Positions 17,853-61,824 of a stretch of 64,000 nt of DNA are shown here, one piece after another (positions within the stretch are counted from its first letter, which is position 1; each line of letters begins with the position of its first letter). Both the position numbers and the translations under genes were made by a program. This DNA is from Bacteroidota bacterium (GTDB taxonomy: Bacteria; Bacteroidota; Bacteroidia; Bacteroidales; JAIOZK01), in assembly GCA_034521425.1 (NCBI GenBank), contig JAXHMP010000001.1, positions 2,779,182-2,843,181 on the forward strand, written 5' to 3'. Below the pieces are notes generated by a model that saw only the letters and a list, made by a program, of their open reading frames with translations, made no database searches and was not told where the DNA came from.

Positions 17853-17934
17853 GTGGACAAAAAACTATAGTCCTTTTGCCAAATAGACTAAAATATTTGG
17901 AATGGACAGACCGATACGATATATTTCCTGTTTT
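17853..17934. repeat. Left copy of ~80-bp direct repeat flanking the IS (long target duplication)
   Basis: gtggacaaaaaactatagtccttttgccaaatagactaaaatatttggaatg.. matches 19561-19643, including a degenerate copy of the darT start. Confidence 0.8.
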
Positions 17935-19560
17935 CCGCATTTTTTTGGGACACCCTCTGAAACCCTTGTTAATATTGGATTTTATATTTAACTTGGGTGT
18001 CCCAAAATGTCGCTCATGTTTATTCGCAAGAAACCCAATCCTTCGGGAAGCACTTCTGTACAATTGATTCAGAAGATCAAGGGCAAGTATAAGGTGGTAA
18101 AAACGATCGGTTGCGCCACTACGTTGCGCGAAATTGAAACATTGGAACACATTGCTCGTCAGGATATTGAGTTACTGACTGCCCAGACTGAACTTTTTTA
18201 TAGCAAAGAGGATACGCTGATCGAAAATCTTGTTGCCTCGATCAGTAATGATGACATCCAAACCCTGGGCCCGGAACTCGTGTTCGGTAGGATTTATGAT
18301 AGTATTGGGTTTGATGCCATCAAGGAAGAAATGTTTCGTCACCTGGTCATAGCAAGATTGGCCTATCCTTTGAGCAAACTGAAAACCGTTGATTACTTGT
18401 ATCGTTATCAGCGGGTTTTATTGGATAGTGATGCTATATATCGCTTCCTGGACAAATTGAGCAGTAAGTTAAAGCCACAGATAGAGCAGATCGCCTTCAA
18501 GAACACGATGAAAGTTCTTCGGGGAAAAGTCAATATTGTTTTTTACGATATGACAACGCTTTACTTTGAGGCCAGTGATGAAGATGATTTGCGAAAAACG
18601 GGCTTCAGCAAGGACGGCAAGCATCAAAACCCACAAGTTTTCATTGGTCTTTTGGTAGGACTGAATGGATACCCGATTGGGTACGACATTTTTAAAGGAA
18701 ACACATTTGAAGGACACACCCTGATCCCATTCATTGAGAAGATGGCTAAGAAGTTCAACCTGGGAAAACCAGTGGTTGTGGCAGATGCTGGGTTGTTATC
18801 AAAAAGCAATATTGAGGCATTAGAGAACAAGGGATACGAGTACATTCTTGGTGCCAGGTTAAAAAACGAAACGGATCAACTTAAACTACAAATTCTTGAA
18901 TCGAAATTTGAAGACGCAACGATTCAAAGCTTCAAGCGAAAGGATAAATCAAGACTCATTGTTCATTACGCTTCAAGCAGAGCAAAAAAGGATGAGTATA
19001 ACCGCAAAAGAGGCCTGCGACGCTTAGAAAAGCGAATAAAAGCAGGCAGGTTGACCAAATCCAGTATTAACAACAGGGGCTACAATAAATATTTAAAACT
19101 GAGTGGCGAAGTAAGTATTGAAATTGACTACGACAAATTTGAAAAGGACGATCAATGGGACGGTCTGAAGGGTTATATCTCCAACACGAAAATGACAAAT
19201 CAACAAGTATTAGACAATTATAAACATCTTTGGCAAATCGAGAAAGCCTTCCGCATGTCAAAAACAGATTTGAGAATACGACCTGTTTACCACAGATTGC
19301 AAAATAGAATCGAAGCCCATATTTGCATTGTGTTTACAGCATACAGTATTTACAAGGAGCTTGAGAGGGCTTTGTATGAAGCAAATTCAACACTTTCCTT
19401 AAAGAAAGCAGCTGAGATAACACATAGGATTTATCAGATCACCTATACTTTACCGAGCGCTAAGCAAAGGAAATCCAGGTTGCTGAAAATGGACAAAAGC
19501 CAGGCGGAGTTGGTCAGAATCATCAACGAAAAATTTTAGGGTGTCCCAAAGCGGTATAAA
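17935..19560 (+). mobile_element. IS1634-family insertion sequence
   Basis: Terminal inverted repeat ccgcatttttttgggacaccct (17935-17956) versus agggtgtcccaaagcgg (19538-19554). One 510-aa transposase ORF. Long flanking direct repeats are a known trait of IS1634. Confidence 0.8.
18007..19539 (+). CDS. IS1634-family (IS4-related DDE) transposase
   Basis: Intact 510 aa. The N-terminus MFIRKKPNPSGSTSVQLIQKIKGKYKVVKTIG is characteristic of the family. Also has ..VVADAGLLS.. and ..YKHLWQIEKAFRMSKTDL..RPVYH. Confidence 0.85.
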   Translation: MSLMFIRKKPNPSGSTSVQLIQKIKGKYKVVKTIGCATTLREIETLEHIARQDIELLTAQTELFYSKEDTLIENLVASISNDDIQTLGPELVFGRIYDSIGFDAIKEEMFRHLVIARLAYPLSKLKTVDYLYRYQRVLLDSDAIYRFLDKLSSKLKPQIEQIAFKNTMKVLRGKVNIVFYDMTTLYFEASDEDDLRKTGFSKDGKHQNPQVFIGLLVGLNGYPIGYDIFKGNTFEGHTLIPFIEKMAKKFNLGKPVVVADAGLLSKSNIEALENKGYEYILGARLKNETDQLKLQILESKFEDATIQSFKRKDKSRLIVHYASSRAKKDEYNRKRGLRRLEKRIKAGRLTKSSINNRGYNKYLKLSGEVSIEIDYDKFEKDDQWDGLKGYISNTKMTNQQVLDNYKHLWQIEKAFRMSKTDLRIRPVYHRLQNRIEAHICIVFTAYSIYKELERALYEANSTLSLKKAAEITHRIYQITYTLPSAKQRKSRLLKMDKSQAELVRIINEKF

Positions 19561-19643
19561 GTGGACAAAAAACTATAGTCCTTTTGCCAAAATAGACTAA
19601 AATATTTGGAATGAGTATACCCGATACCATATATTTATTTCGC
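19561..19643. repeat. Right copy of the IS-flanking direct repeat
   Basis: See 17853-17934. Confidence 0.8.
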
Positions 19644-23920: not shown

Positions 23921-24036
23921 CATTTACCCTGTTTACCCCGCCTGTCCCGTGAAACCTCTTCTTGTTTCACTGGGATTGATTCTCTTCACAATCAACCGGG
24001 GTAAAATCACGAAGTGAATATTCCATCAGGGACAAA
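23921..24036. repeat. Structured ~120-bp repeat, copy d
   Basis: Same element as 12291-12400. Confidence 0.8.
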
Positions 24037-44017: not shown

Positions 44018-44935
44018 ATGAGTTTAAACATAATTATACCAACACATAATAGAACGAATGAACTAGAAAATGCATTAAACAGCTTGAATAATCAAACTCG
44101 AGCTTCCTATACTGAGGTTATTATTGTTGATGATGGATCTACCAAACCTGTAGCGGAGGACGTTTTGGTAAAAACGTTTCAAAAACTAAAGTTAAAAGTG
44201 ATCAGAAATGATAAACCACTTGGAGCAAATAATGCAAGAAATCAAGGAATTTTAGAGGCAAAAAGTGATTGGATTGCTTTCCCTGATGATGATGATGAAC
44301 TAATCAAGAATACAGAGTACAAAGAATAAATTCAATCATTAAAGAAAAAAGGAAATTTATTAGATGTGATTTATCATCCTGCGGAATATAATATGGTTAA
44401 TGAGAATATAACTTATTATACAAAACCAAGGCAAATAAATAACAATAAAAACACTTTTAAACAGCTGCTAAACAAAAACTATATTGGTGCATCATCAATG
44501 GTTATTGTAAAAAAATCAAAACTTTTAAAAGTTAAATCTTTTGATGACAATTCACCTGCAGTTCAGGATTATGGGGCTTTGGCTTAGACTGGCCGAAAAC
44601 AAAGCTTATTTTTATTTTGTTAATGAGACTCTTTTTCAAGGTATAACTGCATCACAAATAAAAATAGTATTTCAAAATACAGTTAATAAAATGACTTCGG
44701 CAATGGAGTAGATAGAGAATAAGTATAAGGATAGACTTTTTAAGCTTAACAAGAAAGAAAGAAAGAATTGGGAGCAGTTAAAAATGGAATGATAATTCAT
44801 AAAGCTTATTTAAATAATAAAATTTCCCTAGCTATTAAACTTAATTTGATATCATTTATACGATTTAAAAAAGTCAAATATCTATTTGCTGCTATCGTTT
44901 CGGTGTTTCGGAAAATAGACTAATCTTTTATACTA
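44018..44935 (+). pseudogene. Glycosyltransferase family 2, decayed
   Basis: MSLNIIIPTHNRTNELENALNSLNNQT..VIIVDDGS.., ..FPDDDDEL.. (DxD), then frameshifts. Confidence 0.65.
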
Positions 44936-47781: not shown

Positions 47782-48419
47782 GAGGTAACGAAGCTATGAG
47801 AGGTGAGAGGTGAGAGGTGAGAAGTGAGAGGTGAGAGGTGAGAGGTGAGAAGTGAGAGGTGAGAGGTGAGAGGGTGAGAGGTGAGCCTGCTAACTTCATA
47901 ATTTAAAGTACTAACACCATGAGTCAACTTGGAGATAGCGATGAGAGATGAGTGGTGAGAGGTGAGACTGCTAACTTCATAATTTAAAATACTAACACCA
48001 TGAGTTCAAATTGGAGATAGCGATGGAGATGAGGGTGAGAGGTGAGACTGCTAACTTCATAATTTAAAATACTAACACCATGAGTCAGAAATGGAAATAG
48101 CAGTGAGAGATGAGAGGTGAGAGATGAGATTTGAGAGATGAGAGGTGAGAAATGAGCTAGCCAAGTTCAATATGTAAAACATCAACACCATGAGTTAGAA
48201 TGGAAATAGCGGTGAGAGATGAGCGGTGAGAGATGAGATCTAGACTAAGCGTGCAGATAGATATAAACATCAAACCGCCCCTGTCCGAATACGAGAGATG
48301 AGAGGTGAGAATGATTGAAGATGAGCTCACGAGAGAATGCAGTAAGTGACCGACATATGTCAAACTCTCATTCTGCCAGTTTCACCACTCATGAAAGATC
48401 GCTCATAACTTAAAAAACC
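47782..48419. repeat. GAGAGGT STR interleaved with ~60-bp core units that each contain the four-helix-bundle gene start
   Basis: Four units of ..ctgctaacttcataatttaaaatactaacaccATGAGTCAGAA..ggaaatagcg + (gagaggt/gagagat)n. Confidence 0.85.
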
Positions 48420-48794
48420 ATGAGTCAGATTAACAGTTTTAGGGATTTGATTGTATTTAAAAAAGCCTATGAAGTCGGAATGGAAATTTTTGAGATAACA
48501 AAGAACTTTCCCAAGGAAGAAAAGTATTCGCTTACAGATCAGATTCGAAGGTCTTCAAGATCTGTCACATCAAACATAGCCGAAGCCTGGGCTAAAAGGA
48601 TATATGTCAAATCTTTTGTCAGCAAGCTGAGTGATTCACTCGGCGAGAGAATACGAATCAGAGGTCTGGTTGGACTATTCCAGAGATTGCCGATCATTAA
48701 TACAGAAACCTACAATTCACTGATAAACAAATACAACGAAGTCAGGAAAATGCTAATCGCAATGATCAATAGTCCAGAAAAATTCTGCAAGTGA
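48420..48794 (+). CDS. Four-helix-bundle protein (IVS-protein family) with a compensated double frameshift
   Basis: 124 aa, about 90% identical to 50555-50929. The exception is 17 codons (ERIRIRGLVGLFQRLPII versus EEYESEVWLDYSRDCQYI) caused by +1 (near 48647) and -1 (near 48692) indels. Possibly non-functional. Confidence 0.65.
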   Translation: MSQINSFRDLIVFKKAYEVGMEIFEITKNFPKEEKYSLTDQIRRSSRSVTSNIAEAWAKRIYVKSFVSKLSDSLGERIRIRGLVGLFQRLPIINTETYNSLINKYNEVRKMLIAMINSPEKFCK

Positions 48795-48822
48795 GTACAT
48801 CTTAAAAATAAACGACCCCCTA

Positions 48823-48868
48823 ACTCACTACTCACCTCTCACTACTCATCTCTCATCTCTCAAATCTC
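48823..48868. repeat. Inverted STR (CTCACYW / ACCTCTC)
   Basis: Complement orientation of the GAGAGGT family, immediately 3' of the ORF. Confidence 0.85.
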
Positions 48869-49100
48869 AATAACCTCAAACATTGCTGAAGCCTGGGCGA
48901 AGAAAATATATGTCAAATCTTTTGTCAGCAAGCTGAGCGATTCACTCGGCGAGGAATACGAATCAGAAGTCTGGCTGGACTATTCCAGAGATTGCCAATA
49001 CATTAATACAGAAACCTACAATTCACTGATAAACAAATACAACGAAGTCAGAAAAATGCTAATCGCCATGATGAACAACCCAGAAAAGTTCTGCAAATAG
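48869..49100 (+). pseudogene. Four-helix-bundle gene, 3' two-thirds fragment
   Basis: ..SNIAEAWAKKIYVKSFVSKLSDSLGEEYESEVWLDYSRDCQYINTETYNSLINKYNEVRKMLIAMMNNPEKFCK* has no 5' end. Confidence 0.8.
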
Positions 49101-49104
49101 CAAA

Positions 49105-49158
49105 ACTCACCTCTCATCTCTCATCTCTCATCGCTCACCTCTCACCGCTCACCGCTCA
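49105..49158. repeat. Inverted STR (CTCAYCK)
   Basis: ctcacctctcatctctcatctctcatcgctcacctctcaccgctcaccgctc. Confidence 0.85.
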
Positions 49159-49232
49159 AATCTTTTCATCATTGTCCAAAAATATGTACATTTGATATTA
49201 CGTTAGTTCAGAAGTAAATAAAGCCGATAATA

Positions 49233-49823: not shown

Positions 49824-50554
<731 letters not shown>

Positions 50555-50929
50555 ATGAGTCAGATTAATAGTTTTAGGGATTTGATTGTATTTAAAAAAG
50601 CCTATGAAGTCGGAATGGAAATTTTTGAAATAACCAAACATTTTCCAAAAGAAGAAAAATATTCGTTAACCGATCAAATTCGAAGATCATCCAGATCAGT
50701 AAGCTCAAACATAGCCGAAGCTTGGGCCAAAAGGATTTATGTCAAATCTTTTGTCAGCAAGCTGAGTGATTCACTCGGCGAAGAATACGAATCAGAGGTC
50801 TGGCTGGACTATTCCAGAGATTGCCAATATATTAATACCGATACCTACAATTCATTGATAAACAAATATGACGAAGTCAGAAAAATGCTAATCGCTATGA
50901 TCAATAGTCCAGAAAAATTCTGCAAGTAA
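50555..50929 (+). CDS. Four-helix-bundle protein (23S rRNA IVS protein family)
   Basis: Intact 124 aa: FRDLIVFKKAYEVGMEIFEITKHFPKEEKYSLTDQIRRSSRSVSSNIAEAWAKR.. Confidence 0.85.
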   Translation: MSQINSFRDLIVFKKAYEVGMEIFEITKHFPKEEKYSLTDQIRRSSRSVSSNIAEAWAKRIYVKSFVSKLSDSLGEEYESEVWLDYSRDCQYINTDTYNSLINKYDEVRKMLIAMINSPEKFCK

Positions 50930-50956
50930 GAACATCTAAGAACAAACGATCCCCTA

Positions 50957-51073
50957 ACTCATAACTCATCTCTCACCACTCACCACTCACCGCTCACTAC
51001 TCATCTCTCACCTCTCATCTCTCACTACTCACTACTCACTACTCACCGCTCACCTCTCACCGCTCACCTCTCA
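50957..51073. repeat. Inverted STR (CTCAYYR heptamers)
   Basis: ctcataactcatctctcaccactcaccactcaccgctcactactcatctctc... is the complement of the left-arm heptamers. Confidence 0.9.
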
Positions 51074-51138: not shown

Positions 51139-52366
51139 ATGCAAAAAACCGCACTAATAACCGGCATCACCGGCCAGGATGGCGCCTACCTCGCCGAGTA
51201 CCTGATCAAAAAAGGATACATTGTCCATGGGATCAAAAGAAGAGCTTCTCTGTTCAACACAGACAGGATCGACCACCTTTACCAGGATCCACATGTGGAG
51301 GACCGGAACTTCATCCTGCATTACGGCGACATGACCGACAGCATGAACCTCACCCGCATCATACAGGAAGTGCAGCCGGATGAGATCTATAACCTGGCTG
51401 CACAAAGCCATGTAGGCGTGAGTTTTGAAACGGCAGAGTATACGGCCAATGCAGATGGTGTGGGTACGCTCAGGATATTGGAAGCAGTCCGTTTGCTTGA
51501 TTTAACGAAGAAAACCAGGATCTACCAGGCTTCTACTTCCGAGCTCTATGGCATGGTGCAGGAGGTGCCACAAAGCGAGAAAACGCCTTTTTATCCAAGA
51601 TCGCCTTACGGGGTGGCCAAGATGTATGCCTACTGGATCACGGTCAACTACCGGGAGGCCTATGGCATGCATGCCAGCAATGGCATCCTGTTCAATCATG
51701 AGTCGCCCATACGGGGCGAAACCTTCGTCACCCGCAAGATCACCCGGGCCATCGCCAGGATCGCCCTGGGCATGCAGGAAAAGCTCTACCTCGGCAACCT
51801 CTCCGCCCAACGCGACTGGGGCCACGCCAAGGATTATGTCAAAGCCATGTACCTCATCCTCCAGCAAGACGAGCCGGATGATTATGTCATCGCCACCGGC
51901 ATCACCACACCGGTCAGAGACTTTGTGCGGAAAGCCTGTGCAAACCTGGGAATAGAGGTCTCTTTCGGAGAAGGAAAGGAGGAAAAGGGCTACATCACCG
52001 CCATCGATGAAACAACATTCAAAGAAAAAGTCGGGAGCAAGTATCTAGAAAAAATCAGATCCCATATCGCCCCTTCGCCCAGTCGCCCCATCGCCCCATC
52101 GCCCAGTCGCCCCATCGCCCCCTCGCCCCCTCGCCCCCTCGCCCCTTCGCAAGCTATTGTTGCGGTGGATCCACGCGTATTTCCGTCCAACAGAAGTGGA
52201 ACTCCTCATCGGAGACCCGACCAAAGCCAATACCAAACTGGGCTGGAAACCGGAATACGACCTGGATGGCTTGATCAAGGACATGATGCAATCGGATATT
52301 GAGTTGATGAAAAGGGATAGTTATTTGCGGGATGGGGGGTATCGGGTGATGAATTACTTTGAATAG
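51139..52366 (+). pseudogene. gmd: GDP-mannose 4,6-dehydratase, full length but with a repeat insertion and one frameshift
   Basis: Canonical GMD sequence throughout (..[32 protein letters not shown]..). An extra G near 52177 splits ..AVDPR|[17 protein letters not shown].. into two frames. This may be a sequencing error. Confidence 0.85.
52066..52150. repeat. TCGCCCC(N) STR inside gmd, in frame ([27 protein letters not shown])
   Basis: About 11 units. Located in the variable loop just before the conserved ..IVAVDPRYFRP.. segment. Confidence 0.85.
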
Positions 52367-52410: not shown

Positions 52411-52806
52411 ATGGCTGAGATTGTATATAAAGAAGAAAGTTACAGAATCATTGGTGTATGCATGAAGGTTCATAAGACCCTTGGTGAGGAGTTTCTTGAG
52501 GCAGTTTATCAAGAAGCATTGGAAAAAGAGTTCAGGGAGCAGCAAATACCATTTGAGAGTCAGAAAAAGCTATCATTGTTTTATGATGGTCAGCAACTCA
52601 AAAAATATTACAAAGCAGACTTTCTTTGTTTTGATAAAATTATTGTTGAAATAAAGTCAGTGAGTTTTTTGAACAATGATTTCAGAAGGACTTTGTTCAA
52701 CTATCTTAAAGCTACTCAATTAAAACTTGGATTATTGATCAACTTTGGGAATAAATCTCTTGAATATAAACGCATCCTCAATCCAAGCGTCCCCCCTTCG
52801 CATTAA
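52411..52806 (+). CDS. GxxExxY protein (PD-(D/E)xK nuclease-like, TIGR04256-type)
   Basis: ..IGVCMKVHKTLGEEFLEAVYQEALEKEF.. contains the GxxExxY signature, plus ..DFLCFDKIIVEIKS.. Flanked by inverted GCGAATT-type repeats (52368-52405 and 52795-52842). Confidence 0.8.
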   Translation: MAEIVYKEESYRIIGVCMKVHKTLGEEFLEAVYQEALEKEFREQQIPFESQKKLSLFYDGQQLKKYYKADFLCFDKIIVEIKSVSFLNNDFRRTLFNYLKATQLKLGLLINFGNKSLEYKRILNPSVPPSH

Positions 52807-52855: not shown

Positions 52856-54041
52856 ATGCAAAAAAACAGCAAAATATACGTCGCCGGCCATACCGGCCTT
52901 GTAGGAAGCGCCCTTGTAAAAGCCCTGCAAAGAAGAGGCTATTCAGAACATCATAGGTAAAACAATCAATGAACTGGATTTAAGAAATCCCTATATCGGT
53001 AAGTAACTTTTTTCGAATCATTCGAAACCCGAATACATCTTCCTGGCAGCGGCCAAAGTAGGTGGCATCGTCGCCAACAACATCTACCGCGCCGAGTTCA
53101 TTTACGACAACCTGATGATACAGAACAACATCATCAATGCAGCCTATGAATCAGGGGCCAAAAAACTCCTCTTCCTGGGCAGTACCTGCATCTACCCCCG
53201 CGAATGTCCCCAGCCCATGAAAGAGGAATATCTGTTAACGGATGTATTGGAGTACACCAACGAACCCTATGCCATCGCCAAGATCGCCGGCATCAAAATG
53301 GTCGAAAGCTATAACCTGCAATACGGCACCAATTTCATTTCCGTCATGCCCACCAACCTCTACGGTCCCAACGACAACTTCGACCTGGAAAAATCTCATG
53401 TATTGCCGGCATTGATCCGGAAAATTCATCTCGGCAAATGCCTCGAAGAAAACAACTGGGAAGCAATAAGAATAGACTTAAATAAACGTCCAATAGAAGG
53501 AATTAGTGGTGAGGCATCACAGCAAGACCTACTTAATATTCTTGATAAATATTCAATACGTCAGGTTAAAAGAGACGGTGTCATACTGAGCGAAGTCGAA
53601 GTATGGGGAAGTGGCGCTCCCATGCGCGAATTCCTCTGGAGCGAAGAAATGGCCGATGCATGTGTTTTCCTGATGGAAAATGTGGATTTCAAAGATTTGA
53701 TACAAAGTCAAATGTCAAAGGTTGAAAGTCACAAGTCGAAAGTCAAAAGTCAAAAGTCAGATACTGACCTTCGACCTTCGACCTTAGACCTTGGACATTC
53801 GACTGAAATAAGAAACACCCATATCAACATCGGTACCGGCAAAGAAATTTCCATAAAAGACCTGGCCCATCTGATCAAAGAAAGCATCGGCTTCCGGGGC
53901 GACCTGGTCTTCAACACCGAAAAACCGGACGGCACCATGCGCAAACTCACCGACCCCTCCAAACTGCATGAGCTGGGCTGGCATCATAAGATTGAGATAG
54001 ACGAAGGAATAGAGAAGATGTATGAGTGGTATCTGTCTTAG
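52856..54041 (+). pseudogene. fcl: GDP-L-fucose synthase, 5' end frameshifted, palindromic STR inserted in frame
   Basis: [21 protein letters not shown].. At least 3 frame breaks in 52940-53040, then an intact 308-aa ORF (..LGSTCIYP..EPYAIAKIAG..PTNLYGPNDNF..). Confidence 0.85.
53706..53804. repeat. Palindromic STR inside fcl (AGTCRAA xN / TTCGACC xN), in frame
   Basis: agtcaaatgtcaaaggttgaaagtcacaagtcgaaagtcaaaagtcaaaagtcagatactgaccttcgaccttcgaccttagaccttggacattcgact encodes SQMSKVESHKSKVKSQKSDTDLRPSTLDLGHST. Confidence 0.85.
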
Positions 54042-54155
54042 GAAGCGGTGAGAGGTGAGACTGCTAACTTCATAATTTAAAATACTAACACCATGAGTCA
54101 GAATTGAAATAGCGATGAGAGATGAGTGGTGAGAGGTGAGACTGCTAAATTCATA
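54042..54155. repeat. GAGAGGT STR + core units (left arm of the next four-helix-bundle cassette)
   Basis: Starts 6 nt after the fcl stop: gcggtgagaggtgagactgctaacttcataatttaaaatactaacaccatgagtcagaattg.. Confidence 0.85.
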
Positions 54156-54324
54156 AATGAACTACCCAGAGGCAACCCTGCGGGGTATCATTATGAAACA
54201 TTCATTTGATTCGCCCCAAGGGGCGGGGAATATTACCCACGAGATCCCTCGACAAGCTCGGGATCAGTTCGACTTTGCTTTTTCAGTTCGCTATCGCTCC
54301 TAAAAAATCAGTCTCACTGATTTA
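54156..54324. mobile_element. 169-bp MITE, copy 2, inserted inside a core unit
   Basis: Splits ..ttcataa|tttaaaatactaacacc.. The uninterrupted version occurs more than 8 times elsewhere. No target duplication is evident. Confidence 0.8.
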
Positions 54325-54463
54325 AAATACTAACACCATGAGTCAGATTAATAGTTTTAGGGATTTGATTGTGTTTCAGAAAGCCTATGAAGTTTCGATG
54401 GAAATATTTGAAGTAACCAAGAAATTCCCAAAAGAAGAAAAATATTCCTTAACTGATCAAATT

Positions 54464-54718
54464 CACCCTGTCAAATAATTCAATATTATTATGGATTTTT
54501 ATTACGTATATATTCTTCAAAGTGAACTTGATAATAAATTTTATACAGGTTATACTAAAAATATTGAATTAAGATTTGAGCAACATCAAAAAGGGCAAGT
54601 TCACCCTGTGAAATAAAATTAAAAATTTTAATGCGTAGCATTATTTCACAGGGTAAAAAACTCATTATGGGAAAATGTTTATTAAAAACAGGCTCAAATC
54701 TTATTTGACAGGGTAAAG
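54464..54718. mobile_element. 255-bp element with 13-bp terminal inverted repeats (ACCCTGTCAAATA) carrying a truncated GIY-YIG ORF and a nested mini-hairpin element
   Basis: caccctgtcaaata...tatttgacagggt. The inner accctgtgaaata..tatttcacagggt element lies at 54602-54657. A related left end occurs at 63011. Confidence 0.75.
54491..54615 (+). pseudogene. GIY-YIG nuclease-family gene, N-terminal 37 codons only
   Basis: MDFYYVYILQSELDNKFYTGYTKNIELRFEQHQKG.. contains the YVYIL..FYTGYT (GIY..YIG) motif. Truncated by the nested hairpin element. Confidence 0.7.
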
Positions 54719-54989
54719 CAGATCATCCAGGTCAATAACCTCAAACATTGCTGAAGCCTGGGCGAAGAAAATATATGTCAAATCTTTTGTCAGCAAGCTG
54801 AGTGATTCACTCGGCGAGGAATACGAATCAGAGGTCTGGCTGGACTATTCCAGGGATTGCCAATATATTAATTCCGATACCTACAATTCATTGATAAACA
54901 AATATGACGAAGTCAGAAAGATGCTCATCGCAATGATCAATAGCCCCGAAAAATTCTGCAAGTAAGAACATCTAAGAACAAACGATCCC

Positions 54990-55178
54990 TAACTCACTAC
55001 TCACCGCTCATCTCTCATCTCTCACCGCTCATCTCTCATCTCTCATCTCTCACCGCTCATCTCTCATCTCTCATCTCTCACCGCTCATCTCTCATCTCTC
55101 ATCTCTCACCGCTCATCTCTCATCTCTCATCTCTCACCGCTCATCTCTCATCTCTCACCGCTCATCTCTCATCTCTCA
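54990..55178. repeat. Higher-order STR (28-bp = 4 x 7: ctcaccg ctcatct ctcatct ctcatct)
   Basis: About 6.5 units. Inverse orientation to the GAGMGRT array at 56666-56757 on the other side of the ATPase gene. Confidence 0.9.
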
Positions 55179-58515: not shown

Positions 58516-59836
58516 AATCTTCAAATTTTTTGTAAACTTACGAATTATTGTAACAATGGTTACAGTAATGGCTGTTACTTTTAACCGATCAAATACGCAG
58601 ATCATCCAGGTCAATAACCTCAATTATTGCCGAGACCTGGGCTACCACACCCGTCAGGCTGAACACCCCACCCGTCAGGCTGAGCGAAGTCGAAGCCCCA
58701 TAACTTGCTCACCAACAACGCATCTCGACTGCGCTCGATGTGACTGAGAGACAGACAATCAAAAAAATGATGTAACGATTGAGGGATTGCACGATATAAC
58801 GATATTCGAAGTAGGGCCCGAGCAAATCGCTAAGTCGTTAAATCGCCCAATCGATCAATCGCGCAATAAAAAAATGTTTTGCGAAAAGGCTGAGCACCTC
58901 ACCCGTCAGGCTGAGCACCCCACCCGTCAGGCTGAACACCCCTCCCGTCAGGCTGAGCACCGCGCCCGTCAGGCTGAGCGGAGTCGAAGCCCCGTAAATA
59001 CCTCACCAACAGCGCATCTCGACTGCGCTCGATGTGACTGACAGACAGACAATCAAAAAAAAATGATGTAACGATTGAGGGATTGCACGATATAACGATA
59101 TTCGAAGTACGGCCCGAGCAAACCGCTAAGTCGTTAAATCGCCCAATCGATCAATCGCGCAATAAAAAAATGTTTTGCGAAAAGGCTGAGCACCCCGCCC
59201 GTCAGGCTGAGCGAAGTCGAAGCCCCGTAACTTGCTCACTAACAGCGCATCTCGACTGCGCTCGATGTGACTGACAGACCGCATTCACCAACAAAAAAAC
59301 GGCTGCAACGATTCAGTATTCAGGCATGTAACGAGTACCTCAACAGTCAGGCTGAGCACACCACCCGTCAGGCTGAGCACCGCACCCGTCAGGCTGAGCG
59401 AAGTCGAAGCCCCGTAACTTGCTCACCAACAGCGCATCTCGACTGCGCTCGATGTGACTGAGAGACAGACAATCTGATGTAACGATTGAGGGATTGCACG
59501 AATAACGATATTCGAAGAGCCCGAGCAAATCGCTAAGTCGTTAAATCGCCCAATCGATCAATCGCGTAAAAAATGTTTTGCGAGCAGCACCGTCAGGCTG
59601 AGCACCGCCCCCGTCAGGCTGAGCACCGCTCCCGTCAGGCTGAGCGGAGTCGAAGCCCCGTAAATACCTCACCAACAGCGCATCTCGACTGCGCTCGATG
59701 TGACTGAGAGACAGACAATCAAAAAAATGATGTAACGATTGAGGGATTGCACGATATAACGATATTCGAATTGGGTACGAGCCATGATAGCAAAATGCAT
59801 TAACTATCTTTGTAAAATAGCTATTGAAAATGCGTA

Positions 59837-60001
59837 ATGACAATTAAAAAAGGCACAGAAAAGGATCAAATAAAAGCTATACTTGAGAAAATCAGGAGAA
59901 AAAGGGTAAGAAGAAAAACTGATTTAAGCAAATATTGCGGTGTATTATCGTTGAACGAAGACCCTTTGGAATTACAAAAAAAGTGGAGAGATGAATGGTG
60001 A
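59837..60001 (+). CDS. Putative antitoxin of PIN toxin
   Basis: 54 aa (MTIKKGTEKDQIKAILEKIRR...DPLELQKKWRDEW*). Overlaps the PIN start by 11 nt. Confidence 0.5.
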   Translation: MTIKKGTEKDQIKAILEKIRRKRVRRKTDLSKYCGVLSLNEDPLELQKKWRDEW

Positions 60002-60372
60002 TCAGCTTTTTCTTGATACGAATATCATTCTGTATTTTCTGAATGGTGATAAATCGCTATTGCCAAATTTAGAAGAAAAGCAATTATTCATTTCTTTTAT
60101 CACTCAGATGGAGTTGTTGAGTTTTAAAGAAATAACTAAAAAGGAAATAAATTTAATAGAGGGTTTCCTTACAAATTGTCTGATTATTGAAATGTCTTTA
60201 CGGATTAAAGAAAATGCAATTTTTGTTCGCAGGAAATATGGTTTAAAGTTGCCTGATGCCATTATTGCCGGGTCTTCAATATGTCCTGAACGTTCCACTA
60301 TTTTCTGCTGATAAAGCAATGTCCAGAATTTCAGAAATTGATCTAATTTATTATCAGTTTGATACAGAATGA
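59991..60372 (+). pseudogene. PIN-domain toxin, C-terminal frameshift
   Basis: MNGDQLFLDTNIILYFL.. (N-terminal D), ..SFITQMELLSF.., ..LKLPDAIIAG.. The frame shifts near 60275 and then reads ..NVPLFSADKAMSRISEIDLIYYQF. Confidence 0.65.
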
Positions 60373-61824
60373 GGGAAAGGAAAAATCCGGAATCCGAATA
60401 GCTCAAAGTCACCGAGTGAATAATCCGTCACATTAAGCTTGATATGACACTATTTTGTTTACGTTCTCCTGAGTTGAGGCGATATTACAATACCCCAAAA
60501 ATCGCTAAATTGCTATGTCGTGCAATCGCCCAATCGATCAATCGCGCAATAAAAAAATGTTTTGCGAAAAGGCTGAGCACCGCACCCGTCAAACTGAACA
60601 CCGCCCCCGTCAGGCTGAGCACCCCACCCGTCAGGCTGAGCGGAGTCGAAGCCCCGTAAATACCTAACCAACAGCGCATCTCGACTGCGCTCGATGTGAC
60701 TGAGAGACAAGGTTCACCAACATCAAAAACGCTAATAAGCCATTGTCAACCACCAACCACCAACCACCAACCACCAACCACCAACTACCAACCACCAACT
60801 ACTCATCTCAAATTCTGCGATCATCTGCGCAAAATAACATCCTTTTGCGACTTTGCGGCTTTGCGTGAAAAATTACAAGACACGCCTTGCAAACACACGC
60901 CAGCTGAGCACCGCACCCGTCAGGCTGAGCACCCCACCCGTCAGGCTGAGCGGAGTCGAAGCCCCGTAAACACCTCACCAACAGCGCATCTCGACTGCGC
61001 TCGATGTGACTGAGAGACAGACAATCAAAAAAATGATGTAACGATTGAGGGATTGCACGATATAACGATATTCGAAGTACGGCCCGAGCAAACCGCTAAG
61101 TCGTTAAATCGCCCAATCGATCAATCGCGCAATAAAAAAATGTTTTGCGAAAAGGCTGAGCACCCCGCCCGTCAGGCTGAACACCGCTCCCGTCAGGCTG
61201 AGCGTAGTCGAAGCCCCGTAACTTGCTCACCAACAGCGCATCTCGACTGCGCTCGATGTGACTGAGAGACAAGGTTCACCAACATCAAAAACGCTAATAA
61301 GCCATTGCCAACCACCAACCACCAACCACCAACTACCAACCACCAACTACTCATCTCAAATTCTGCGATCATCTGTGCAAAATAACATCCTTATGCGACT
61401 TTGCGGCTTTGCGTGAAAAATTACAAGACACGCCTTGCAAACACACGCCAGCTGAGCACCGCACCCGTCAGGCTGATCACCCCTCCCGTCAGGCTGAGCG
61501 GAGTCGAAGCCCAGTAAATAGCTCACCAACAGCGCATCTCGACTGCGCTCGATGTGACTGAGAGACAAGGTTCACCAACATCAAAAACGCTAATAAGCCA
61601 TTGTCAACCACCAACCACCAACTACCAACCACCAACTACTCATCTCAAATTCTGCGATCATCTGTGCAAAATAACATCCTTATGCGACTTTGCGGCTTTG
61701 CGTGAAAAATTACACACCCAAAATCGCTAAATCCTGCCTGCCGGCAGGCAAGGCGCTATGTCGTGCAATCTTTCAATCGAACAATCAAAAAAAATGATGT
61801 ATCTTTGAATAAGCAACTTAAGTT

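Follow-up and report, generated by a model that had tools for sequence, protein, structure and literature searches.

How does an inverted array of heptanucleotide repeats come to lie within the coding sequence of a conserved enzyme, and what keeps it there? The question is raised by fcl, the gene for GDP-L-fucose synthase (Fcl), in a 64,000-nucleotide stretch of DNA (the window; positions 2,779,182 to 2,843,181 of contig JAXHMP010000001.1, assembly GCA_034521425.1) from a metagenome-assembled genome (MAG) of a Bacteroidota bacterium. A sequence-only reading of the window had described a palindrome inserted in frame into fcl, likened it to the Rickettsia palindromic elements (RPEs) and ascribed it to an intergenic repeat family of the same genome that is tolerated in surface loops. 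From repeat and homologue searches, structure prediction and a metagenome scan, we propose, with a probability of about 0.6, that the insert is a palindromic array of heptamers, neutral or selfish, to which a disordered surface loop is permissive.

The palindrome is real and lies far beyond chance. Its left arm (53704–53759, + strand) consists of 8.0 imperfect heptamers with the consensus AAAGTCA, encoding QSQMSKVESHKSKVKSQKS, and is followed by the hairpin loop GATACT (53760–53765) and by a right arm (53766–53804) of 5.4 heptamers with the consensus GACCTTC, encoding DLRPSTLDLGHS. Tandem Repeats Finder delimits both direct-repeat arrays (53704–53759 and 53766–53803), which exceed the three tandem 7-nt copies of a heptanucleotide simple sequence repeat, and the right arm is also recovered by the inverted-repeat search and the folds. 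Within the arrays, 77–87% of positions match and only 2–3 identical units stand in a row. The repeat search pairs 53706–53745 with 53765–53804 (40 nt each) at 78% complementarity, so the palindrome reported at 53706–53804 stands and its description as near-perfect was too strong. Folded as RNA, the + strand reaches −35.3 kcal/mol (z −4.9) and the − strand −49.5 kcal/mol (z −7.6), with none of 200 shuffles as good in either case. The strands differ because the right-arm unit, GACCTTC and not GACTTTY, is no exact complement of AAAGTCA, so that A·C mismatches on the + strand become 6 G·U pairs among the 39 pairs of the − strand. Even an off-consensus left-arm unit, AAATGTC, pairs with a right-arm variant, GACATTC. 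A scan of the whole window against Rfam 15 gave no match at the gathering score.

The host frame (53115–54041, + strand, 308 amino acids) is identified as Fcl by the Pfam Epimerase family (E 2.4e-36) and by solved structures (PDB 7anh_A, E 1.2e-85; Escherichia coli 1e6u, E 1e-68), with orthologues at 70–86% identity, and it runs across the palindrome uninterrupted and in frame. Among GTDB representatives, a genome scan gave no Fcl more than 71% identical, which leaves the source species without a close relative in that set. Exact look-ups in the contig index found no record of the Fcl ORF or the AAA-ATPase ORF of the window or of the protein P0121, nor a second assembly of this locus. The sequence-only reading missed that this open reading frame (ORF) comprises merely the C-terminal four-fifths or so of the gene, and that many other genes of the window, such as those of a cluster at 24–47 kb, are fragmented in a similar way. 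Translation begins at the ATG at 52856, and the N-terminal part (52856–53114, + strand, located by tblastn), including the nucleotide-binding GxxGxxG segment AGHTGLVGS at 52856–52942, is cut off from the 308-residue frame by three 1-nt indels in alignment with the closest orthologue: an extra T near 52944, another near 52991 and a T-run at about 53010–53015 that lacks one base. There is also an in-frame TAA (53004–53006), and no intact full-length ORF that includes the GxxGxxG segment was found in the window copy. These breaks are either long-read indel errors or marks of a real pseudogene.

Compared with Fcl enzymes at large, the segment is an insertion, as alignment and structure comparison both support. 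From one conserved anchor, F-x-D, to the other, E-I-R-N-T-H-I-N-I-G, the loop in question (loop 2; 53697–53807, + strand, ORF residues 195–231) spans 37 residues in the window, compared with 7–8 in the shortest of 80 genome-derived orthologues, exemplified by the CYSQDTKE of Maribacter sequences; Fcl length itself ranges from 355 to 417 residues across orthologues. The solved structure 7anh_A has nothing that corresponds to ORF residues 197–228 (32 residues), in line with the earlier claim of about 33 codons added without breaking the frame. In the AlphaFold model of the window ORF, the predicted local distance difference test (pLDDT) falls below 50 at residues 206–236. This model is poor overall (pLDDT 65, residues 1–86 unmodelled, N-terminal domain missing), and we therefore used the full-length Fcl of Prolixibacter sp. 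NT017 (mean pLDDT 77), whose core around the inserts is mostly confident and in which ten-residue block means fall to 53–64 in an insert of a second loop (loop 1) and to 41–63 in that of loop 2. The insert is thus predicted to be a disordered loop, and the fold suggests that its site lies on the surface, away from the catalytic centre.

The same AAAGTC...GACCTT hairpin occurs at loop 2 of fcl in other organisms, namely Prolixibacter sp. NT017 and a Bacteroidales MAG together with an independent Logan assembly (loci L082, L083 and L084, respectively), and, as judged by peptide, in three further proteins of the Prolixibacter clade (P0003–P0005). The Bacteroidales MAGs with the loop-2 hairpin encode Fcl about 70% identical to that of the window. 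Details of the element recur as well: the junction GTCAGAT is common to the window, L082 and Roseimarinus sediminis (L023), the window, L082 and L083 have the variant unit GACATTC close to the 3′ end of the hairpin, and the string GAAAGTCACAAGTC is shared between the window and L083. Prolixibacter sp. NT017 has a second AAAGTC hairpin in fcl loop 1, and in R. sediminis the hairpin begins 5 nt past the fcl stop codon. Since Prolixibacter and other Bacteroidales have this hairpin at the corresponding loop, it is old or travels with the gene, and we read the loop-2 insert as inherited or transferred with fcl rather than recently made by the genome's own intergenic repeats. The fcl of Prolixibacter sp. 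NT017 is intact, encoding 411 residues with the hairpin included. Because the window copy is frameshifted upstream, it is from this gene that we read tolerance of the insert; the proposed tolerance as a surface loop is thus sustained by the predicted disorder and the intact Prolixibacter gene, and not by the window copy. The closest relative of the window organism, GCA_015657915.1 (permease 95% and Fcl 81–86% identical), carries an Fcl without the loop-2 hairpin (P0001, locus L081); aligning its loop 2 in search of a decayed remnant gave no clear signal either way. Nested in the left arm of the Prolixibacter NT017 hairpin (L082, 5900–5945) is a 36-nt piece (GAGCAAAGCGAAATCCCGACCTTAGGCGTCGGGGTC) with a small palindrome of its own, a repeat within a repeat that is not found in the close relatives P0003–P0005.

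The window itself offers no evident source of the element. Searched with up to two mismatches across the 64 kb, 13-mers of either arm match only within the element, apart from one weak left-arm match at 44189, and the right arm gives no off-target match at all. The abundant inverted arrays of the window are built from other units, TGAGAGG/CCTCTCA and TGTTCGG/CCRAACA. The proposal that an intergenic family of this genome colonises coding DNA consequently holds for a different motif, in loop 1 (below), and fails for the AAAGTCA/GACCTTC element.

Beyond fcl, AAAGTC-type heptamer hairpins form a widespread class, with intergenic and intragenic members in Bacteroidota and Acidobacteriota at the least. 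A metagenome scan for AAGTCNNAAGTC and GACCTTNGACCTT separated by a gap of 3–30 nt found at least 120 loci. Among those listed, 32 hairpins are enclosed by ORFs that stay open for at least 80 residues in each direction, 66 are not spanned by any long ORF and 22 are too close to a contig end to be classified. The intragenic share, 27% of all listed loci and a third of the classifiable ones, is far below the roughly 88% that random placement in a gene-dense genome would give, a shortfall of the kind expected if purifying selection removes most insertions. Pfam confirms as hosts DnaE2 (three separate inserts), a fused GlyQS (in the linker), PurL (two), MutS2 and radical-SAM proteins (two), and linkers of 2-oxo-acid dehydrogenase E2 proteins, identified by eye, hold hairpins as well. 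Insertions recur at the same site of the same protein on several contigs, three times each in MutS2 and a HemW-like enzyme and twice in a B12-type radical-SAM enzyme. The DnaE2 host belongs to the Acidobacteriota (Pyrinomonadaceae/Blastocatellia); a peptide signature of left plus right arm is present in 50 of 120 Acidobacteriota DnaE2 homologues, at 86 sites, compared with none of 120 SLC13 permeases taken as a control, and DnaE2 length ranges from 1106 to 1323 residues. Contigs with AAAGTC hairpins also hold heptamer hairpins of unrelated units, so the architecture is more general than the AAAGTC unit.

A second, smaller structure occupies loop 1 of Fcl, where a stem-loop at 53582–53605 (+ strand), delimited by repeat search and covariation, encodes part of GVILSEVEVW: CATACT (53582–53587) pairs with AGTATG (53600–53605) around a 12-nt loop, GAGCGAAGTCGA. 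The sequence CTGAGCGAAGTCGAAG at 53586–53601 exactly matches a 16-mer with 12 occurrences in the window at up to two mismatches (chance expectation 0.01), which bears out the earlier view of a repeat-like piece at 53586 that belongs with the intergenic hairpins; intergenic members keep the 12-nt loop and carry other stems, ACCCT/AGGGT and GGCT/AGCC. Orthologues have the hairpin at identical codons with compensatory changes. In Maribellus (L205) the stem is CACACT/AGTGTG, an Ile-to-Thr change (ATA to ACA) being paired with a synonymous GTA to GTG, and the stems are ACACT/AGTGT in L206 and CACATT/AGTGTG in L207. In an alignment of 16 sequences, the four inner pairs are paired in 15 of 15 distinct sequences and two of them covary; stem covariation is 0.411 compared with 0.113 in shuffles, a value that none of 500 shuffles reached. 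The hairpin is old, since its sequence in the closest relative (L081) is identical. Repeats of about 296 nt at 58650–61700 include 21-nt tandem sub-repeats (GTCAGGCTGAGCACCCCACCC) that run into the GAGCGNAGTCGA hairpin and then a conserved tail (…CATCTCGACTGCGCT), with A, G or T at the N position of the loop among copies. That the GAGCGAAGTCGA loop might resemble a GCGNAGC mini-hairpin or the core of a hammerhead was considered, and was dropped as no test supported it.

Both loops vary in length from 7–8 residues up to 50 (in loop 2) across 120 protein homologues and 80 genome loci, and they hold arrays with periods of 7 and 8, among them PEPGTRNPKPETRNPKPE and SPSRPVAQSP. Other peptides found there (SFDKLRMT, SLRGGTTKQS...VVRNDG, LSVAERSRS and GVTLSE) we take to be translations of other dispersed hairpin repeats. 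In Marinilabiliales-type orthologues, the two loops are hypervariable ‘museums’ of translated repeats. A similar case is gmd (GDP-mannose 4,6-dehydratase, 51139–52302), which contains an in-frame (ATCGCCCC)×10.6 array at 52066–52150, with an 8-nt unit and a 24-nt super-unit encoding IAPSPSRP three times. GMD orthologues are hypervariable at this spot, L082, L083 and L205 having other repeat-like inserts there. Some 25 nt past the repeat insert, a 1-nt insertion near 52176 shifts the frame of gmd, and its true C terminus lies in ORF 52157–52366.

The arms of the AAAGTC hairpins change together. In one orthologue (L004, with a loop identical to that of P0095) both arms are built of 8-nt units, GAAAAGTC and GACYCTTC, whereas those of its tree neighbour (P0075, L083) are of 7 nt. 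The seventh base of the unit is variable, and in 119 hairpins from metagenomes the two arms are Watson–Crick concordant at this base in 71 cases and of transition (wobble) type in 24 more. The arms thus appear to share a history or to be homogenised, and covariation by itself is no proof of selection for structure. Replication slippage and hairpin-templated (quasi-palindrome) correction are established mutational processes. We suggest that slippage spreads unit variants within one arm, that hairpin-templated correction copies them to the other and that complementarity is probably kept by this concerted evolution at the DNA level. The insert would probably have no enzymatic role, persisting as neutral or selfish DNA through the permissiveness of the disordered loop and through selection that retains in-frame, stop-free and hydrophilic versions. 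Such peptide-level selection would explain the T-to-C changes from GACTTTN to GACCTTN that give A·C mismatches on the sense strand. Perfect pairing with AAAAGTC would call for GACTTTTGAC, which in tandem contains TGA, and perfect pairing with GAAAGTC for a unit that encodes the hydrophobic DFRLSTF, where GACCTTC encodes DLRPSTF. The 32 in-ORF copies of the scan have the orientation with A·C in the mRNA in 23 cases and the opposite one in 9, an excess consistent with a filter on the peptide. The idea that good pairing always falls on the antisense strand was rejected, as in-ORF copies occur in both orientations.

Several points weigh against a neutral or selfish element. Neither an insertion event nor a target-site duplication nor a mobilising enzyme was identified; no duplication is evident at the element boundaries, themselves uncertain, and no partner element came to light. 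Mobility is for this reason read from the distribution only. A neighbour-joining tree of 121 Fcl sequences is star-like, placing hairpin-bearing genes in at least three places, not robustly, and it cannot separate a single ancient insertion followed by losses from repeated insertion. The metagenome pattern fixed the AAGTC/GACCTT core, so that dominance of this unit over other heptamers cannot be read from the scan. The window copy of fcl may be a pseudogene, which would make ‘tolerated’ moot here. Finally, the kept complementarity together with the compensatory changes in loop 1 could reflect selection for a functional nucleic-acid structure.

The last of these points leads to an alternative that we consider unlikely overall, in which the palindrome is a cis-acting structure under selection, such as an RNase III or other processing site, an mRNA stabiliser, a pause site or an antisense element. 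In its favour, the arms have stayed complementary from genus to genus and even where the unit length changed, the antisense strand folds very stably, the compensatory changes of the loop-1 hairpin are genuine and arrays of the window flank 23S-rRNA intervening sequence (IVS) protein genes, recalling intervening sequences processed by RNase III. However, the window has no Rfam match, the fcl of the closest relative does without the loop-2 hairpin, neither strand is consistently the well-paired one among in-ORF copies (23 to 9) and the loop sequences of the metagenome hairpins are not conserved. Rather unlikely, in our view, is the more ambitious idea that AAAGTC-type arrays are a cross-phylum, self-propagating hairpin DNA that repeatedly inserts in and around genes, creates disordered loops and is mechanistically tied to cassettes of 23S-rRNA-IVS-protein (bAvd-like) genes, the solo fcl hairpin being a gene-less derivative and complementarity being actively kept as a substrate for mobilisation or processing. 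Genes of the 23S_rRNA_IVP family lie 17–540 nt from hairpins in 5 of the listed loci, with a sixth case at 1,586 nt, counts that stand without a baseline frequency, and no PD-(D/E)XK GxxExxY gene was found near hairpins among the listed loci.

Slippage of 7-nt units could also make fcl a contingency (phase-variable) locus, shifting its frame and switching the supply of GDP-fucose and the fucosylation of surface polysaccharide. This would suit the position of fcl and gmd within a polysaccharide-biosynthesis cluster, units that are not multiples of three (7 nt in fcl, 8 nt in gmd) and array lengths that vary between orthologues. We regard it as quite improbable, as imperfect tracts with 2–3 identical units in a row are poor slippage substrates, the frameshifts of fcl and gmd fall outside the arrays and the same hairpin type occurs in essential purL and glyQS, where switching off would be harmful. 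The segment might instead be an ordinary ancestral low-complexity linker of an Fcl subfamily with incidental palindromy. The sequence-only reading had held that the same segment in orthologues from unrelated taxa would make it an ancestral loop; the segment does recur at this loop in other Bacteroidales, Prolixibacter among them, with similar peptides at that site in other genera, and the loops of many orthologues end in ...STE. We nonetheless find little to recommend an ancestral linker, given the inverted symmetry of the DNA (z −4.9 and −7.6), the occurrence of the same DNA element at the second fcl loop and the fcl 3′ flank in other genera and in unrelated genes and intergenic DNA, and loops that hold many different translated repeat families according to lineage. 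Most improbable of all would be an artefact of long-read assembly, for instance a small fold-back chimera: the window does come from a MAG contig rich in gene-fragmenting 1-nt indels, but the insert keeps the frame and sits at the same codon positions in independent assemblies (Prolixibacter sp. NT017, the MAG GCA_014860665.1 and the Logan assembly).

How does the proposed neutral or selfish element compare with known systems? RPEs, reportedly described by Ogata et al. in 2000, are sequence families of about 100–150 bp found in Rickettsia only and are not tandem heptamers. The likeness is that palindromes lie both between genes and in frame in conserved proteins, at permissive surface regions, with the ORF left open. 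Here, too, an in-frame palindrome in a conserved protein goes together with family copies elsewhere, those copies being in other organisms, and the same hairpin type is intergenic as well as in frame in many unrelated proteins, so that the suggestion of RPE-like behaviour holds up well. The fcl element differs in being built of 7-nt units whose copy number varies and in having hosts among Bacteroidota and Acidobacteriota; by analogy it behaves like an RPE, the likeness being one of behaviour and not of sequence, and membership of the RPE family is not claimed. Tandem 7-nt units are shared with the heptanucleotide repeats of other bacteria, among them cyanobacterial short tandemly repeated repetitive sequences, the TAACTGA arrays common to Beggiatoaceae, Cyanobacteria and Bacteroidetes (PMC4679880) and the GGGAATC repeats of Xanthomonas, which form 70–75 convergent inverted pairs per genome with the potential for stem-loops and are intergenic and under-represented in genes (PMC4692102). 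Those repeats are mainly intergenic, with other units that form G-quadruplexes or contain stops, whereas the inverted arrays of fcl adjoin one another, form one hairpin and are read through in frame.

Repetitive extragenic palindromic (REP) sequences and REPINs, GTAG- or CGTC-tagged palindromes (PMC3116915, PMC3733652) and intragenic sequences resembling miniature inverted-repeat transposable elements (PMC2229807) are likewise short dispersed hairpins, occasionally intragenic, and are thought to be non-autonomous mobile DNA (PMC3116915, PMC3733652, PMC2229807). The fcl element differs from them in having internally repetitive arms and in being an inverted repeat as a whole; no REP-associated tyrosine transposase, transposase partner or tetranucleotide head was found with it, although no search was aimed at these. 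In the tandem repeats of Borg proteins (PMC9879509) and in PARCEL (PMC2996958), repeats at the DNA level likewise add low-complexity, disordered in-frame segments, those of PARCEL being palindromic at the coding level (PMC2996958). Borg repeats, however, are direct, with intragenic units divisible by 3 (PMC9879509), and PARCEL modules are larger, amphipathic and part of surface proteins (PMC2996958). No description of in-frame palindromic heptamer arrays was found in the literature searched.

The single fcl locus is modest, and the pattern reached from it is broader than the sequence-only reading proposed. If a neutral or selfish element is the right explanation, in-frame colonisation by palindromes is recurrent in free-living Bacteroidota and Acidobacteriota rather than a curiosity of Rickettsia, and heptamer arrays generate disordered loops and linkers in housekeeping enzymes. 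Such inserts make proteins longer and more varied in length, can lead alignment and structure prediction astray, and mark permissive sites that could be used in protein engineering, and with their co-varying arms they are a natural system in which to study concerted evolution templated by hairpins.

The inverted heptamer arrays of the window flank small genes, including 23S_rRNA_IVP genes at 48420–48794 and 50555–50929. TGAGAGG arrays stand on one side and CCTCTCA arrays on the other at 47791–49164, 50158–51073 and 54114–55178, the last bracketing a third 23S-rRNA-IVS-protein (bAvd-like) gene, a fragment that starts at about 54339. This array-bracketed cassette layout recalls rRNA intervening sequences, and gmd and fcl lie between the cassettes. 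At 47860–48239 and 49996–50386 there are tandem modules of 81 and 109 nt, each repeating the 5′ leader and start codon of the IVS-protein gene (…AAAATACTAACACCATGAGTCAG), and the leader appears again at 54090 and 54320. Among the metagenome loci, L113 (7547–8251) has a hairpin on each side of its 23S_rRNA_IVP gene; there and in L203, L124, L151 and L191, the gene lies 17 nt from the hairpin or 300–540 nt upstream of a gene that carries the hairpin in frame. The gmd–fcl spacer holds a PD-(D/E)XK GxxExxY (PDDEXK_3) or 23S_rRNA_IVP gene in the window (52411–52806) and in L205 (2531–2908), L082 (4561–4935) and L083 (4534–4905), and in L081 (1611–1988) a gene of one of these two kinds lies directly upstream of fcl. 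It seems that small and possibly selfish genes have landed in this spacer repeatedly.

Elsewhere in the window, a polysaccharide-biosynthesis cluster at 24000–47000 (epimerases, a DegT aminotransferase, a NeuB-like protein, a UDP-GlcNAc 2-epimerase and glycosyltransferases) is split into many short ORFs, which could reflect sequencing indels or pseudogenes, and G+C content is 28–35% at 38–44 kb. An intact transposase ORF of the IS1634 family (510 residues) occupies 18007–19539, with the palindrome TGGACAAAAAACTATAGTCCTTTTGCCA on both sides of it, at 17854–17881 and 19562–19589.

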